Assembly: GCA_018823885.1 (NCBI GenBank)
Contig: JAHJHG010000009.1
Coordinates: 783 to 64,782, forward strand
Reading direction: 5' to 3'
DNA length: 64,000 bases
Source: Patescibacteria group bacterium
GTDB taxonomy: Bacteria; Patescibacteriota; Microgenomatia; UBA8517
The notes under the pieces were generated by a model that was not told where the DNA came from, did no database searches, and saw only the letters and a list, made by a program, of their open reading frames with translations. The position numbers and the translations under genes were made by a program. Shown here in pieces: positions 1,552-46,289 of this stretch (position 1 is the stretch's first letter; every line of letters starts with the position of its first letter).

Positions 1552-3498
1552 TTATTCTAACTTGTGGCTGATATTAATTGAGTAGAGTCTTTCTTCTGTA
1601 ACAATTATTATTTTACCAACTTCTTCAGATACAACCATTCCTCTTGCTTCTTTTATTTTATCCGAAAAGTACTGAGCTTGGTAATTACCCTCCTTGTCGA
1701 CGACAACAATTCTTCCTGTTTCTTTCTCCATCAAGTAAACAAACTTAAGTTCCTCGTTTGTATAAATGGCCGTCGGTCGGGATAGTTGGGGTATGATGTC
1801 CGCAAAGCTTAAAGTATCTTGATTTCCCTTGGTAAATTTAAATACTTTTCCTGTTTCTGAAAGAAACCAGATAGAACCATCAATTGTCCAGTCAAAAATA
1901 TTACTCAAGTCCGGCTCTGTTCCAGCCGTTAGCCAGTCTTGTTTTGAGCCAAAACCACCATCTGCACCTGCGTACCGATAAACCTTGGATGTTCCCCGAT
2001 CCAGCACATAGAAATTGCCGGCATAAGCGGAGATAAGAACGTCTCCTTCCCATTCGCCCTCGACTGCTAACTCTCTTTCGTCAGCAACTTCATAGATATT
2101 TCCATCTGATAACACAAATACTCTGTCAGAATAGGCCGCCACCCCTTTTGCCTCTTTTACTTGGTCGGGTCCAGCCACAATCTCGGTCTTTTTTGTTTCG
2201 ATTTCTATCTCGACTACCTTTTTCCCATCTCTGTCTAAAACATATAGCTTTCCGTCTGAAGCAACCACATCGTCCGCCTTAAAACCATCCGTTAAAATTG
2301 ATAAGTCTAAGAAAAGATCTGATTCAATTGTATATTCACCTAAAACTTGTCCTTCCGATTCTTCAAGAAGGGCAATTAAGTTGTCAAGTTCAGAATCTTC
2401 AACCCCTTCATCTTTAATTTGATAAACAAGTCTTTCTGCATTTCTGAAAAGCTCCCTCGCTCTTTCGGGGTCAAGTGTATAAAGGCCTTGCGCCTCTTCA
2501 AATTCATGTTGGGCTTGCTTAAGTCGATCTTCATAGCGGGCGCGTTCATCACGAACCATCTTTTGTCTTACCCCAAAACCGATGCTTACAACAAGTAAGA
2601 CAACAAGAATTGAACCAATTGAAACCGTAACTTTCCTTTTTTGAACATTAAATTCATCTTCTCCTCGCTGTCGAACATATATTTTCTTTTCTCCTGTCCT
2701 TTTACTAAAAATAGAGGTTAATTTATTCGCCTGTTTTTGGAAAAAAGAGGCCGGTCGATCTTTAGTTTCCTTATCAAAAATCTCTTTGCGTTCTAGTGTG
2801 GTTTTTTCTTCTGGTTCAAATTCCTTATCCGGTCGTGCAAAAATTGCCTGCGTCTTTGAAAACTCGACTAAGACAAGTCCAAAATTTCCCGCCTCTTCTC
2901 TTGAATGAACAGCTGGAGCCAAAGACTCAACCGCTTCATTTATTCCCGAACTTTCAAGGGCTGCTTTTATCACACCTTCGCTCAAAGAACTAAAAACCTT
3001 TTTTGTCCCAAGTAAAAATATGTCTCCTTCTTTGGGATGGCCGGAAGCAGATACCGGTCCATTATCTTTGCTTACCAATATTTTAGCCAACATACCATTT
3101 CTAAAAACAGCTGCCTGTCCGCCACCACCGCAAGCAGTGTAGATAACTCCATTAACTATTGAGGCGGCCGCTATCTCAACATCACCCCAGGTTTCCGAAA
3201 ATTCGCTTATTACCCTCTCTACGGAATCATTGAGAGCATTAAAGGCCGTTTTTTCTGTGCTACCGAAGTATTCCTCATGAAATCTTGTTAAAAGTTCTCT
3301 TCCAGCAACAACATTATCGAGACCTTCAGGGTCAGGGGGTGCTTCACTTTTTTGAGAGGTCGTTGCAATAACAGCCACTAATCTTCCACGAAGCTTTAAT
3401 TTTTCTTCATCGTCTGGGGCAAATTCATGAACTTGGGCCCAACTGGCTTTTCCCGGACTCCCGGTTAATTTAGCTAAATTGATATCTAATTCTGCCAC
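1552..3498 (-). CDS. Hypothetical bitopic membrane protein. Cytoplasmic N-domain, one TM, coiled-coil, then extracytoplasmic repeated YVLD(R) beta-propeller-like repeats.
   Basis: 648 aa ORF. Central hydrophobic segment VTVSIGSILVVLLVVSIGFGV. Recurring YVLDRDG/YVLDRGT repeats in the C-terminal half. Confidence 0.45.
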   Translation of the reverse strand: MAELDINLAKLTGSPGKASWAQVHEFAPDDEEKLKLRGRLVAVIATTSQKSEAPPDPEGLDNVVAGRELLTRFHEEYFGSTEKTAFNALNDSVERVISEFSETWGDVEIAAASIVNGVIYTACGGGGQAAVFRNGMLAKILVSKDNGPVSASGHPKEGDIFLLGTKKVFSSLSEGVIKAALESSGINEAVESLAPAVHSREEAGNFGLVLVEFSKTQAIFARPDKEFEPEEKTTLERKEIFDKETKDRPASFFQKQANKLTSIFSKRTGEKKIYVRQRGEDEFNVQKRKVTVSIGSILVVLLVVSIGFGVRQKMVRDERARYEDRLKQAQHEFEEAQGLYTLDPERARELFRNAERLVYQIKDEGVEDSELDNLIALLEESEGQVLGEYTIESDLFLDLSILTDGFKADDVVASDGKLYVLDRDGKKVVEIEIETKKTEIVAGPDQVKEAKGVAAYSDRVFVLSDGNIYEVADERELAVEGEWEGDVLISAYAGNFYVLDRGTSKVYRYAGADGGFGSKQDWLTAGTEPDLSNIFDWTIDGSIWFLSETGKVFKFTKGNQDTLSFADIIPQLSRPTAIYTNEELKFVYLMEKETGRIVVVDKEGNYQAQYFSDKIKEARGMVVSEEVGKIIIVTEERLYSINISHKLE

Positions 3499-3728: not shown

Positions 3729-4423
3729 CTAACTCTCCCTTCTAGTTTCTCTATCTCTTCCTCAATCCTCAGATCTTGTAATATCTTGGCTACCTTATCA
3801 GGATTAGGTACGGCCAAAAAATCAAAGTTGGGCACCTCCGCCGCAGTTTGAACAAATACGTCACCATAATTAAATAACGTTCTAGCTACTCCTCCCATTG
3901 TGTAAGTAACATCCTGGATTTTATCAATATTGGTATCTGATACTTGTTTATATATCAGATTGAAAAAATCGATATCAATAATTCTTTCATCCGTAATAAT
4001 GTTTACATTGAAAAACCAAGTAAGGAAATTCTCCATAAAAAAAGCGGTTGTTATAAGATACCAGCCCAGAATGGCAATTAGTTGAAACTCATCGGGTAAA
4101 AAAGAGAGTAAAGGAAAAATACTTAAAACTGCCGGAGCAACAATCATCAACGCCCCAATAACAATCCAGGAAAAATTAGTCACGGGATGCCTGCGCAACA
4201 AAAGGACAACTTTTTCTTCTTTATCTCTTGTTTCAAAATTAACCTTTTTCGGAAGATAACTAAAAGCCGACAATCTACCTTGAGCTTTCTGTTCAAGTTT
4301 ATACTTTGGACGCCTATGTTTTCCCTCTCTTTTTGCTTTCGAGGCAGACTTTTTCTTAATAGGTTCTTTCTTAGAAGTTAGCTTTTCTTTTTTTGTGTCG
4401 TTAGAAATAAAGATATCCGGCAT
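3725..4423 (-). CDS. Membrane protein with lysine-rich N-terminus, possibly a bPH_2 (membrane-flanked PH domain)-like protein
   Basis: K-rich N-terminal 60 aa, then two TM helices (RRHPVTNFSWIVIGALMIVAPAVL...) followed by a soluble domain. Confidence 0.4.
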   Translation of the reverse strand: MPDIFISNDTKKEKLTSKKEPIKKKSASKAKREGKHRRPKYKLEQKAQGRLSAFSYLPKKVNFETRDKEEKVVLLLRRHPVTNFSWIVIGALMIVAPAVLSIFPLLSFLPDEFQLIAILGWYLITTAFFMENFLTWFFNVNIITDERIIDIDFFNLIYKQVSDTNIDKIQDVTYTMGGVARTLFNYGDVFVQTAAEVPNFDFLAVPNPDKVAKILQDLRIEEEIEKLEGRVR

Positions 4424-4467: not shown

Positions 4468-6204
4468 TTATTTCTTCTCTATATTGAAAAGTGGACCAAC
4501 TATTTGGATATTAGCAGGGGCTCTTAAGTTGAAAAAATCTTTGAATTGGTTGGCATCAAAACTGTCACCGCCAGCATCACCGCTGACAGCAATTGTGGTT
4601 GATTTTCCTGTTCCCCAATCAACGCCCGGCATTGAAACACTGGAAATACTGTTGTAAGGGGTAACTCCTCGATTGCTTAGTTCCTGTTTTACTCTTCCCG
4701 AATCCCATGTGTCTGTACCGGCAGGATTCGGCTTATCAGTTTGATATAAGTGTTCACTTACCGAAGGATCCTTTTGGGCCAACATTAAAACATTAACTAT
4801 ATCCGCTACTTCCTCTGATTTGAGCCAAGCGGAATTACCGTATTCACTGCGCCAACCCTGGGCCGCATAGAAACAAGGCGAATCTTTATCATAAGCTTGT
4901 GATTGAAGGTCAGAAAAACTACCAACATCGCCGGTTGTGTCTCTTAATCTTTTTGTCCATGGCGTTCCACTCCAACCAACATCAGATGAAGCGAACGTAT
5001 ACCCTCCAGATGTTGAAGCATACCAGGCCGTAATCACTTGACCACTATTGATGGCAACCTCTCCTTCAGTGGCACGAACGGCCGCTTCCCAATTTCCTCC
5101 TTTGTTTCCTCCCTTATAAACTTGGCAACTTTGGGTTGTGCAAATCTCTTTTGTGCCATTATTCGTATAAGACACCGCATAAGAGCGAGCCGCTACTGCT
5201 TGGGCTTTAAGAGCCTCAATTGGCCAGCTTTCCGGCATTTCATAAATCCCAAGAAGATAGGTTTCGAGCGACATAGAGCCATATCCTTGAACACTAATAT
5301 TAATATCTGGTCTTTTTTCAATGGTAATACCCTGATAGTAAGCATTTAGAATCTGTTGATATGATTGGCCCGCATTGGCCCTGCCATATGCACCGTATTG
5401 ATTTATACCCACCCTGTGAGGAATGCCGTAGGTATAAAAGGCAAAAGCAGGGCTGAAACCTGGATTGAGGTTTCTGTCATCGGTACAAAAAAGCGGTCCA
5501 GCTCCCAAACTAGTTGGTAAATTTAAACTACCTAACTTTTGAGCAATGAAACTCTGTTGTTTAGAACTTAAACTGGCAATATAGCTTTCAACCTTGGCCA
5601 CTTCTCCTGAAAGAAAGGTCGCTCTTTCATCCACTTTCATTTTTATGGCAGCCAGTCTCGTGTTATTTCTTTCTAAACTCTCTTTGTCTTCTTTGAGTTT
5701 CAATAAATCTTCTGCGTAGGCCTCCATTGTTCTTCTATCTTCATCAGCTGCTTTTTGACGAAAACTTATTTCCCTAAAAGCTTCTGAAGCGTCGTTAGAG
5801 GAAAGGAATGGCAAGATGGGATCGTAAAGTCTCAAAAATTTATAATGGCTATTGGCCTTGGCTTCAAAAATTTCCTGAGTAAAGGCGAGGTCTTCTTCTC
5901 TTTGTCCAATATTTTTTTCAACAATATTTAGTTGTGCAGAAATACCATTAATTTGCTTATTTAAACTATTAAGTTCCGTTCTTAAGTTTGCCAATTCTTG
6001 TTTGTTGTACTCATGGGCCGGCTTTAATGCATCAATTTCCCGCTGAATTTTATCAATACAGAAGGTTAGATCCCCTTGCTCAGGATTATCACAATTTGGC
6101 TCAGCAGAAATCAGAGAGGTTTTGTTTATAAATATTGTTGAAATAAATAGCAACACTAAGACCAAAAAAAGAGAAAAGTGTTTTGTTAGCTTGGAGGTTG
6201 TCAT
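4468..6204 (-). CDS. Secreted SpoIID/LytB-domain protein with N-terminal coiled-coil
   Basis: Signal peptide. Long coiled-coil. C-terminal SpoIID-like motif EALKAQAVAARSYAVSY...ICTTQSCQVYKGG. Confidence 0.7.
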   Translation of the reverse strand: MTTSKLTKHFSLFLVLVLLFISTIFINKTSLISAEPNCDNPEQGDLTFCIDKIQREIDALKPAHEYNKQELANLRTELNSLNKQINGISAQLNIVEKNIGQREEDLAFTQEIFEAKANSHYKFLRLYDPILPFLSSNDASEAFREISFRQKAADEDRRTMEAYAEDLLKLKEDKESLERNNTRLAAIKMKVDERATFLSGEVAKVESYIASLSSKQQSFIAQKLGSLNLPTSLGAGPLFCTDDRNLNPGFSPAFAFYTYGIPHRVGINQYGAYGRANAGQSYQQILNAYYQGITIEKRPDINISVQGYGSMSLETYLLGIYEMPESWPIEALKAQAVAARSYAVSYTNNGTKEICTTQSCQVYKGGNKGGNWEAAVRATEGEVAINSGQVITAWYASTSGGYTFASSDVGWSGTPWTKRLRDTTGDVGSFSDLQSQAYDKDSPCFYAAQGWRSEYGNSAWLKSEEVADIVNVLMLAQKDPSVSEHLYQTDKPNPAGTDTWDSGRVKQELSNRGVTPYNSISSVSMPGVDWGTGKSTTIAVSGDAGGDSFDANQFKDFFNLRAPANIQIVGPLFNIEKK

Positions 6205-43757: not shown

Positions 43758-44129
43758 ATGTCACACATTGAAAGAAAAGATTTGATTGGGCTACTACCAG
43801 AAGAGTGGCGTCGGTATGTGGTTTCAATTCATAGGGCAGCAAGAGAAATATTGCCCTTATTAGGAAAAGATCCAAGTAATGAAAATATTATCTCATTTAT
43901 TGAGGATGCGAGAATATCATATGTTAAAAACATATTTTTGGCAGAAGAAGCGGCAAAGATAAGATGCAGGGAAGAATTGGAATTAGAAGAAAAATACAAA
44001 GAAATTAATTTATCAAAAAAACAAATAGAGAATAGAGTAAAAAAGGAGATTGAAGAAAGATATAAAGAAATTGATATTGATCCTGAAAGAAACTGCTCCT
44101 TTTTAGATGAATTTCTTTTTATAGAATAA
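43758..44129 (+). CDS. Hypothetical protein (123 aa, E/K-rich)
   Basis: ORF only. Confidence 0.35.
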   Translation: MSHIERKDLIGLLPEEWRRYVVSIHRAAREILPLLGKDPSNENIISFIEDARISYVKNIFLAEEAAKIRCREELELEEKYKEINLSKKQIENRVKKEIEERYKEIDIDPERNCSFLDEFLFIE

Positions 44130-44168
44130 ACATTGTCTTTTTTGTCTTTCAAGCTTAGAATCAACGTT

Positions 44169-44696
44169 ATGACAGCTTCTGAGTTTAAAGAAAGAAACCC
44201 GACAGAAATCCAACAAGCAACTCTTGTTTTCTTAATAAGAGGAAGAGGAAAAGATAAAGAAATACTTCTTGCTATGAAGAAGAGGGGTTTTGGTGAAGGC
44301 TGGTGGAATGGAATAGGGGGAAAGATTGAACCAGGGGAGACTCCAACGCTGGCCGCATTTAGAGAAGGATTTGAGGAAGCGGGAGTACATTTAAGCGAGA
44401 TAAGAAAAGTAGCATTGCTTCACTTTTATTTCCCTGAAGATCCTGACAAACGGGATTGGAATCAAGATGTACATGTTTATATTGCAACTAACTGGCTAGG
44501 GGAGCCAAAAGAAACAGAAGAAATGAAGCCTAAATGGTTTAGAGTTGCTAATATTCCGTATGAGAATATGTGGGACGGTGACCCGCTTTGGCTTTCCCGA
44601 ATCCTTCAAGAGGAGAAAATAGAAGCGTGGTTTAACTTTGATGACAGAAATAAAGTTTTAGATTACAAAATAGGAAAATTTAGTGAGGAAGAATAG
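44169..44696 (+). CDS. NUDIX hydrolase
   Basis: Nudix box GGKIEPGETPTLAAFREGFEEAGV. Confidence 0.7.
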   Translation: MTASEFKERNPTEIQQATLVFLIRGRGKDKEILLAMKKRGFGEGWWNGIGGKIEPGETPTLAAFREGFEEAGVHLSEIRKVALLHFYFPEDPDKRDWNQDVHVYIATNWLGEPKETEEMKPKWFRVANIPYENMWDGDPLWLSRILQEEKIEAWFNFDDRNKVLDYKIGKFSEEE

Positions 44697-45387: not shown

Positions 45388-45412
45388 AAAACCAGAGCTG
45401 TAGCCCTGGGCA

Positions 45413-45440
45413 TAAAAAAATCTCGCCTGAAATTGCGAGA
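45413..45440 (-). terminator. Rho-independent terminator after the LAGLIDADG endonuclease gene / tRNA-Cys transcript
   Basis: Hairpin TCTCGC-ctgaaatt-GCGAGA, followed on the minus strand by T7. Confidence 0.5.
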
Positions 45441-45503
45441 TGTCGCTATTTTAGCCTATGAAATCCTAAAAATCAAGTTTTGAGGTTTAGAAAGAGACCC
45501 GTT

Positions 45504-46175
45504 TTAAATTTCAGATAAATATACAGCTTTTCTTTTTAGTGAAATTATGTGGTTCGGGTAATACATGTATCTCAGTAGTTTATAAGTGTCTTTTTGCCCA
45601 TAACCAAGTTTATATTGGTGTGGACCATATTGTCCTATTGCTCTTTTAGCCAAAATTAGCTTTTCAGTCAATATTTGTCTTAGCGCTACTAAGAATAGTT
45701 TACTTCCGCTAGTAAAGTTGCTTCTTGTCTCAGTGTATAGCTTTCCATTTTTGCTTGCCCGATAAGTAATATTATGAACACTGCCGTCTCCGTCGAAAAA
45801 GCCTCTGATAAAATCATGGAGATATTTATTGGGCACATATGGGAATTTGAGAGTCGTTGAGTTACTTCTTGTGCCGCCCAATTTTTTTAAGTCATGATAA
45901 AGCTTTTTGGAGTGGAGAGTAAGGTAATGTGAGCCTTGAAGCACTCCATTGTTAAAAAATCTATATATTTTAGCATTTGAACCAGCCACCTGTTTTATAA
46001 GCTCGAGGTGTTTATAGTCTTTGGAGGAAAAGCTTACTCGATAAGATCGTTCATGCTTCATGTCTCCATCTGCAAACCAAAAGCCAAGAACATATGCCAT
46101 TTTTGGAGACCAGGCAGAGAAGAAGCTTTCATTTAAGGTATATTTTCTGGAGTGATGAGGAAGGGTCATAAACAA
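45504..46175 (-). CDS. LAGLIDADG homing endonuclease (double-motif, single-chain)
   Basis: Two LAGLIDADG motifs: VLGFWFADGD and IRGFFDGDGSV. Free-standing gene 43 nt downstream of tRNA-Cys. Confidence 0.75.
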   Translation of the reverse strand: MFMTLPHHSRKYTLNESFFSAWSPKMAYVLGFWFADGDMKHERSYRVSFSSKDYKHLELIKQVAGSNAKIYRFFNNGVLQGSHYLTLHSKKLYHDLKKLGGTRSNSTTLKFPYVPNKYLHDFIRGFFDGDGSVHNITYRASKNGKLYTETRSNFTSGSKLFLVALRQILTEKLILAKRAIGQYGPHQYKLGYGQKDTYKLLRYMYYPNHIISLKRKAVYLSEI

Positions 46176-46218
46176 TTATAATCCGAAGGAAATGTGAAGT
46201 TAAGGATCAAAGTAAGGG

Positions 46219-46289
46219 AGATCGCGGCGGGATTCGAACCCGCGTAATCTGTTTTGCAGACAGATCTCTAGCCTCTCGAGCACGCGATC
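46219..46289 (-). tRNA. tRNA-Cys (anticodon GCA)
   Basis: Manually folded: 7-bp acceptor GATCGCG/CGCGATC, anticodon stem TCTGT/ACAGA with loop CTGCAAA, T-arm GCGGG-TTCGAAT-CCCGC, discriminator U73 (the Cys identity element). CCA not encoded. Confidence 0.7.

Follow-up and report, generated by a model that had tools for sequence, protein, structure and literature searches.

A gene for a LAGLIDADG homing endonuclease was found beside a tRNA-Cys(GCA) gene in a stretch of 64,000 nt from a Patescibacteria group bacterium (assembly GCA_018823885.1, contig JAHJHG010000009.1, positions 783 to 64,782). The whole stretch is called the window here. The tRNA-Cys is a host gene and anchors the insertion site. 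The endonuclease open reading frame (ORF) lies on the same strand as the tRNA, and the gap between them is 47 nt to the ATG or 41 nt to an alternative TTG start. The gap of 43 nt given in a preliminary description of the locus was thus only approximate. The 47-nt gap to the ATG was kept in three related loci, i.e., L088, L007, and L089. The G+C content of the endonuclease gene is 36.5%, against 39.0% for the window on average and 41-43% for the neighbouring genes. Ordinary host genes were found on both flanks, i.e., GroES/EL, a 123-aa protein, NUDIX, and M23 peptidase on one side, and PEGA/SH3, UbiA, and glycosyltransferase on the other.

The gene is free-standing. In the Rfam scan of the window, no intron model and no rRNA were detected, and Pfam showed no Hint or intein domains in the ORF, which has its own start and stop. 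No integrase was seen among the flanking genes of the locus, an att-like direct repeat of the tRNA-Cys 3' end was looked for and none was found, and the endonuclease gene occurs only once within the window, with no further fragments of it. The description of a free-standing, double-motif LAGLIDADG gene beside tRNA-Cys therefore stood, and the possible absence of the second motif was ruled out by translation. The features of the locus are listed in Table 1. An identical protein has been deposited as hypothetical, from "Patescibacteria group bacterium", and the relatives of the PEGA neighbour are labelled Woesebacteria.

Table 1. Features at the tRNA-Cys locus of the window.
Feature	Position in window	Strand	Remarks
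tRNA-Cys(GCA)	46217-46289	minus	ARAGORN; Rfam RF00005, 60.7 bits; one of two calls begins at 46219
Promoter-like TTAACT-17 nt-TATAAT	46175-46203	minus	-10 box ends 5 nt before ATG; 10/12 consensus matches
LAGLIDADG homing endonuclease ORF	45504-46169	minus	221 aa from ATG
Alternative ORF start, TTG	46175	minus	ORF then 45504-46175
Motif 1, VLGFWFADG	46065-46091	minus	translation checked directly; ends at catalytic Asp34
Motif 2, IRGFFDGDG	45783-45809	minus	translation checked directly; ends at catalytic Asp128
Segment present only with the endonuclease	45489-46216	minus	47-nt spacer, ORF, and ~15 nt past the stop
Promoter-like TTGATT-17-TAAAAT	45476-45448	minus	both terminator hairpins follow directly; M23 peptidase gene lies further downstream
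Two terminator hairpins with T-run	45441-45420 and 45409-45392	minus	fold z = -2.85; downstream of the endonuclease ORF

The protein family was recognized by domain and profile searches. Pfam PF14528 (LAGLIDADG_3) matched with 33.4 bits, above the cut-off of 22.5 bits, and only the second half was matched on its own. In PHROGs, the protein fell in phrog_4645, annotated as "endonuclease" (E = 2.6e-37), and NCBIfam gave no meaningful family for it. In a profile search of 1.84 billion representatives, 27,914 proteins reached E <= 1e-3, of which 643 also reached E <= 1e-30. Within this large superfamily, only a handful of clusters at 50% identity make up the window's own clade.

The two motif-terminal aspartates, D34 and D128, are invariant in an alignment of 44 sequences. 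The AlphaFold2 model built on this alignment had a pLDDT of 93.5 and showed two alpha-beta-beta-alpha-beta-beta-alpha halves. The motif helices (22-34 and 114-128) end exactly at D34 and D128 and are followed by beta hairpins. In Foldseek search against PDB, the top hit was I-Tsp061I (2DCH) with a TM score of 0.67-0.72, followed by I-AniI, I-OnuI, and I-DmoI, and the top 50 hits were exclusively LAGLIDADG enzymes, inteins, or maturases, including the bI3 maturase. I-Tsp061I was also the best PDB match in sequence (E = 0.003, approximately 21% identity). Because more than 400 homologues exist and the model is confident, the ORF is not a chance one. By its sequence and predicted fold, the protein is a double-motif, monomeric LAGLIDADG homing endonuclease, and cleavage is predicted.

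The same syntenic locus was compared among the hosts of sub-clade A1, the Woesebacteria-like lineage to which the window belongs. The gene order glycosyltransferase-UbiA-PEGA, tRNA-Cys, endonuclease, M23 peptidase was kept across these hosts. The endonuclease is 90% identical to that of the window in L088, 74% in L007, 72% in L089, and 63% in L090, L091, and L092. By using the PEGA neighbour as an anchor, relatives without the gene were found. In L093, GroEL and PEGA are 91% and 90% identical to those of the window, and in L177, L178, L179/L180, and L181/L182, of which L182 has the same empty-site sequence as L181, PEGA is 86-88% identical. L096 is more distant (GroEL 82%, PEGA 67%). At least five close relatives are thus without the endonuclease at the same syntenic place, and the gene is not a universal housekeeping gene, which the preliminary description had named as the case against a mobile element. 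In L095, a 499-aa membrane glycosyltransferase-like gene (1679-3178, minus strand; weak PMT_2 and Glyco_transf_22 hits) occupies the position of the endonuclease.

The insert boundaries were placed at window positions 45488 and 46218 by blastn of the window and L088 against L093, L177, and L181. In global alignments of alleles with and without the gene, the internal blocks were spurious and only the tRNA and post-stop blocks were real, so the boundaries were taken from blastn. At the indel, the window has 729 nt (45489-46217), against approximately 58 nt of different sequence in the alleles without the gene. Conservation extends to both sides of the indel, i.e., to the tRNA and to the terminator region. 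The tRNA-Cys sequence is identical or differs by 1 nt between relatives with and without the gene. An A/G difference at tRNA-Cys position 27 was considered to track the presence of the endonuclease, and was rejected because L181 and L182 carry A without the gene. L093 was also considered as a deletion scar. This was rejected too, since five relatives without the gene have the same layout, and L093 is better regarded as a stable empty allele. A presence/absence polymorphism at one homologous site, with an indel matching the gene, is expected of a mobile endonuclease gene, and it was found here.

The tRNA-Cys stands alone in sub-clade A1, and a tRNA-Leu is absent from loci with and without the endonuclease alike. 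A tRNA-Leu remnant was looked for downstream of the window's gene, and nothing convincing was found. Because the relatives without the gene also have no tRNA-Leu, its absence is a trait of the lineage and is unlinked to the endonuclease.

The occupation of the site has changed more than once. In L049, whose GroEL is 74% identical to that of the window, an endonuclease of another clade (37% identity) lies 45 nt past this same tRNA-Cys. The spacer ahead of it has the same layout, and the host terminator region behind it is the same too. With the host synteny unchanged, the endonuclease of L008 (Amesbacteria, 4849-5654) is found 5' of tRNA-Cys and is transcribed in the divergent direction. L019 (WWE3 relative, 4835-5462) likewise has it on the 5' side, transcribed divergently. 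The tie to tRNA-Cys therefore survives a change of side and orientation. L088, with the gene, and L181, without it, come from one assembly (SDBS01, GCA_004196295.1), and their sequences next to the indel on the downstream side are 95% identical. The flanks of L088 are nearer to those of L177, which has no endonuclease (90-93%), than to those of the window (87%). The two kinds of alleles, together with L049 and L008, show repeated gain, loss, or replacement at the tRNA-Cys flank. Discordance with the hosts and repeated invasion of the site were thus seen in L049 and in the L088 flanks, though the A1 ranking follows the hosts.

The region downstream of the ORF was also conserved in relatives without the gene. 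The promoter-like sequence and the two hairpins (45392-45476) were found in L093, L096, and L177-L182, all of which have no endonuclease, and in L049. An intrinsic terminator had been noted after the endonuclease gene. Two hairpins with T-runs do follow it, but since they are present in relatives without the gene, they are host sequence outside the insert. The region could be the native terminator of tRNA-Cys or the leader of the M23 peptidase gene. Alternatively, it could encode a short RNA or act on the M23 gene as a leader of the attenuator type. The host terminators at 45392-45441 probably also end the endonuclease transcript.

The region around tRNA-Cys is generally fluid. The NUDIX and 123-aa protein genes (window 43758-44696) are missing in L093, L178, and L179, and L177 keeps the 123-aa gene only. 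A gene of the 23S_rRNA_IVP family (PF05635) lies between UbiA and PEGA in L090 (1227-1613) and L091 (904-1290). Elsewhere in the window, a tmRNA gene with the tag peptide ANKNVGLAGVSDYNFAFA was predicted at 727-1099 on the minus strand (ARAGORN; Rfam 160 bits).

The wider family was collected by an alignment-based scan with one genome per species, which gave 80 loci where a single-protein query had matched nothing. A metagenome scan gave one locus only, i.e., L088. ARAGORN was run on the 80 loci, and Rfam was added for loci without a tRNA. In clades of the Candidate Phyla Radiation (CPR) type, a tRNA was present within 600 nt of the gene in 67 of 73 loci. Most of these tRNAs are no more than approximately 120 nt away, and nearly all share the strand of the gene (L008 and L019 are divergent). 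As a control, phage relatives (identity up to 39%) adjoin a tRNA in only 3 of 80 cases. Two phage contigs, L108 (3001-3863) and L127 (2873-3768), have related endonuclease genes within phage tRNA clusters, e.g., between tRNA-His and tRNA-Val, or ahead of tRNA-Trp and tRNA-Ala. The organism labels are generic for many of the metagenome-assembled genomes (MAGs).

In a neighbour-joining tree of the matched segments, three clades were separated by tRNA context. Clade A, which includes the window, has at least 46% identity to the window protein and the order tRNA-Cys(GCA), endonuclease, tRNA-Leu(TAA). Clade C (34-39% identity) has the endonuclease ahead of tRNA-Cys and tRNA-Leu. In clade B (34-42% identity), the endonuclease precedes tRNA-Asp(GTC), and a tRNA-Met may stand before it. 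What defines these three clades across CPR is that they sit beside a tRNA. A free-standing endonuclease at a tRNA had been called unusual, and it turned out to be the rule for the family. A connection with CPR rRNA introns had also been suggested. The closest relatives are not in rRNA introns, since all close relatives (at least 46% identity) are at tRNA-Cys, not in or beside rRNA. No rRNA was found by Rfam at the loci of 15 relatives.

The genes of this family fit tightly between the tRNAs. In clade A2, the ATG lies 1-6 nt past tRNA-Cys and the stop 7-11 nt ahead of tRNA-Leu. The clade C loci display the unoccupied clade A site, with tRNA-Cys and tRNA-Leu(TAA) spaced by 0-37 nt. The first 10-24 nt of the downstream tRNA are part of the ORF in 12 of the 15 loci of clade C and in 15 of the 27 of clade B. 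Ten clade B loci and one clade C locus stop at the conserved U8-A9-G10 (TAG) of the tRNA (e.g., L028, 1078-1087), and the remaining overlapping ORFs stop at a TAG or TAA of the D-loop. Since the stop lies inside the downstream tRNA, RNase P cleavage of a co-transcript would remove the stop codon. L035 (4992-6484), from a MAG labelled Omnitrophota, has two different LAGLIDADG ORFs around a single tRNA-Cys, one overlapping its 5' end and the other filling the gap and ending exactly where tRNA-Leu begins. Decayed copies of the endonuclease were found in L017, L033, and L019. In L015, a sequence like the 5' half of a tRNA-Leu (GGGCGAGTGGCGGAATCGGCATACGCGG...) stands in the spacer that separates the stop of the endonuclease from tRNA-Leu (3971-4115), and this sequence may be the leftover of a recombination event.

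Other relatives are not at tRNAs. The genes of the Bacilli clade (L047, L056, L063, L067, L070, L073, and L082) lie away from tRNAs and encode related LAGLIDADG proteins of approximately 280-340 aa, to which a helix-turn-helix is added at the N-terminus (in L063, weak HTH_28, HTH_23, and WhiA-like hits). Near the L070 gene, there is a fragment of a group II intron. The outgroup of the tree is also away from tRNAs, and one of its genes adjoins a group I intron. In L020 (4821-6263, Bacilli MAG, 38% identity), a group I intron (Rfam 85 bits) follows the gene at a distance of approximately 400 nt, so the wider family also has intron-associated members.

A promoter-like sequence precedes the endonuclease in the window, and its layout, i.e., -35 box, 17 nt, -10 box, 5-7 nt, and start codon, was kept in all A1 loci, whose spacers with this layout are 45-49 nt, and in L049 and L069. 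The loci with the kept layout are L088, L007, L089, L090, L092, L008, L019, L049, and L069. Clade C has a well-conserved TTGCAG...TTACCACYTATAAT, followed by ATG or GTG 6-7 nt on, and many clade B loci are similar. A TATAAT match of at least 5/6 ending 4-8 nt before the start was found in 24 of 47 family loci, against 10.4% of 814 control ORFs from the same loci. In six further loci, the start lies at most 15 nt past the upstream tRNA. These positions suggest leaderless mRNAs, the 5' end of which would come from the promoter or from the 3' end of the tRNA.

Whether the endonuclease is expressed mainly within the tRNA-Cys transcript, its mRNA being freed by tRNA 3' processing, has to be weighed with these signals. 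Co-transcription had been proposed for the window. No terminator was found between tRNA-Cys and the ORF, so read-through is possible there, and in clade A2 and some of clade B, where start codons stand 1-6 nt after the tRNA and leave no room for a promoter, co-transcription must occur. Against this as the main route in the window stand the -35/-10 elements directly before the start, which are kept in the short spacer of the window and of all A1 loci. The same layout is present in L008 and L019, where a tRNA on the opposite strand cannot supply the transcription, and the processed RNA would have a 47-nt leader without a Shine-Dalgarno motif. Expression mainly from the tRNA-Cys transcript is therefore considered rather unlikely for the window.

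The locus is likely an intact, mobile, free-standing LAGLIDADG homing endonuclease cassette of approximately 730 bp, with cleavage predicted, and the cassette is probably active. This reading draws on the family, fold, and catalytic residues of the protein, the selection on its gene, the site-specific clades, the polymorphism, and the independent occupation of the same site, all of which are established here. The cassette, i.e., the promoter-bearing spacer and the ORF, would have been inserted between tRNA-Cys(GCA) and the native terminator of the tRNA. The monomeric two-domain enzyme would cut a tRNA flank without the endonuclease, either at the intergenic insertion point or within the adjacent conserved tRNA gene, and repair of the break from a copy bearing the gene would copy the cassette in. 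An intron or intein would be unnecessary for a cassette sitting in tRNA-adjacent spacers, and the tRNA genes would supply a target conserved across distant hosts. The family would be CPR-wide, with each lineage occupying one particular tRNA flank. In the window, a leaderless mRNA would start from the cassette's own promoter, whose -10 box is only 5 nt from the ATG. In sister clades, where the start codon is 1-6 nt past the upstream tRNA, the 3' end of that tRNA would instead provide the leaderless 5' end.

Several points weigh against this explanation. Within A1, the identity of the endonuclease equals or exceeds that of the flanking proteins and ranks with host divergence, and the gene is at one syntenic locus across hosts with UbiA only approximately 50% identical. 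Much of the A1 history was therefore vertical, with the gene intact. The dN/dS between the window and L088 is 0.23 (dN 0.050, dS 0.219), and that of flanking genes is 0.12-0.21. Such purifying selection on a long-resident gene could also be read as a sign of host function. No systematic difference was found between the tRNA-Cys genes of relatives with and without the endonuclease. The clades come from a simple neighbour-joining tree on tblastn segments. The promoter calls are predictions from an E. coli-type consensus. A Shine-Dalgarno motif precedes only 12 of 44 window ORFs, and since it is rare in the genome, its lack before the endonuclease ATG says little. Intact vertical retention also fits continued homing into co-existing alleles without the gene.

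Vertical retention leads to the alternative of a domesticated LAGLIDADG protein that is useful at tRNA loci, e.g., one that binds the tRNA gene or pre-tRNA, or protects the tRNA flank. The dN/dS is like that of the neighbouring genes, and the synteny is stable over a deep lineage. The identity of the endonuclease is 74% in L007, against 78% for GroEL and 57% for PEGA, and 63% in L090 and L092, against 48-53% for UbiA. Domestication of LAGLIDADG proteins has precedents, i.e., WhiA and maturases, and the bI3 maturase was among the Foldseek hits. A useful host protein agrees poorly with the absence of the gene from at least five close relatives and L096, its replacement at the same site by a 37%-identical paralogue in L049, the pseudogenes in L017, L033, and L019, and the two copies around one tRNA in L035. 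The catalytic aspartates are invariant, unlike in WhiA or pure maturases, and three site-specific clades fit target specificity, not a single housekeeping role. Domestication is thus judged improbable. The gene had also been described as a possible remnant, and it could be imagined as a decayed intron or intein endonuclease, or as a gene carried by an integrase-type island at the tRNA 3' end. An intron encodes I-Tsp061I, the nearest relative of solved structure, the distant relative L020 adjoins a group I intron, and tRNA 3' ends are common targets of integrases. The earlier view of tRNA 3' ends as classic invasion sites draws on these integrase islands, and neither an integrase nor an att-like repeat is present at the locus. 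No intron model was hit in the window, tRNA-Cys is intact, and the ORF, with a start and a stop codon of its own, is free of Hint and intein domains. The entire indel is little more than the ORF and its spacer. The gene is intact, with both catalytic aspartates invariant and under purifying selection, so a remnant is hardly credible.

The mobile cassette was compared with known systems. Enzymes of the I-Tsp061I and I-DmoI type are likewise single chains of approximately 200 aa, with a catalytic aspartate at the end of each of the two LAGLIDADG motifs. They are within archaeal rRNA introns, whereas the enzyme of the window is free-standing, bacterial, beside a tRNA, and approximately 21% identical. 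In phage T4, SegB is a free-standing GIY-YIG endonuclease in the tRNA gene cluster (PMC2330249). It resembles the window gene in standing free among tRNA genes, where an intron is unnecessary. The two likely follow the same logic by analogy, i.e., the tRNA region without the endonuclease would be cut and the gene copied in at repair. SegB differs as a GIY-YIG enzyme of a phage, whereas here LAGLIDADG genes are on cellular CPR chromosomes, in lineages tied to the tRNAs for Cys/Leu and Asp. The window protein has no GIY-YIG domain and is not a SegB-type member, and SegB is its nearest working analogue.

In CPR bacteria, LAGLIDADG genes have been reported in 16S/23S rRNA insertions and in rRNA-operon spacers (PMC11809585, PMC7143001, PMC8172020). 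These are of the same phylum and superfamily, and those in rRNA spacers are likewise free-standing beside stable-RNA genes. The insertion genes are in 16S/23S, whereas the window endonuclease is not and its close relatives are at tRNA-Cys. Free-standing LAGLIDADG ORFs are also found in tRNA-rich intergenic regions of fungal mitochondria (e.g., PMC5626475, PMC6506933). These are organellar, and there is no evidence there of clades specific for tRNA junctions or of ORFs ending inside a tRNA. The window locus is unlike an integrase-type island at a tRNA 3' end, since it has no integrase and no bounding direct repeat. In the literature, no description of tRNA-flank LAGLIDADG genes in CPR was found; the coverage was incomplete, and this is absence of evidence only. 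The tRNA-flank LAGLIDADG family is large and apparently undescribed so far.

A further step is proposed tentatively and is more doubtful than likely, i.e., that the family is integrated into tRNA expression, with the nuclease recognizing the tRNA gene, cassette promoters driving downstream tRNAs, and tRNA processing defining the mRNA. If this were true, tRNA-Cys and tRNA-Asp would be landing pads common to CPR phyla, and the cassette promoters of clades B and C would drive the downstream tRNAs. The upstream tRNA 3' end would make the leaderless 5' end of the endonuclease mRNA, and RNase P would remove the stop at U8-A9-G10, so that endonuclease output would be throttled via non-stop mRNA rescue. 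A selfish gene would then be coupled to the maturation of tRNA in a novel manner.

The finding has some practical use. Such compact (approximately 220 aa), monomeric enzymes, presumably with distinct long targets, are possible new meganuclease scaffolds, and pairs of alleles with and without the gene are at hand for target finding. In annotation, a CPR ORF that shares nucleotides with the 5' end of a tRNA-Cys or tRNA-Asp gene can be genuine. LAGLIDADG homing endonucleases are usually regarded as passengers of introns and inteins. The CPR genes described here manage without them by occupying the spacers around specific tRNA genes, and would offer a natural example of how a selfish nuclease can settle, in very small genomes, at a place that is highly conserved and where it does no harm.

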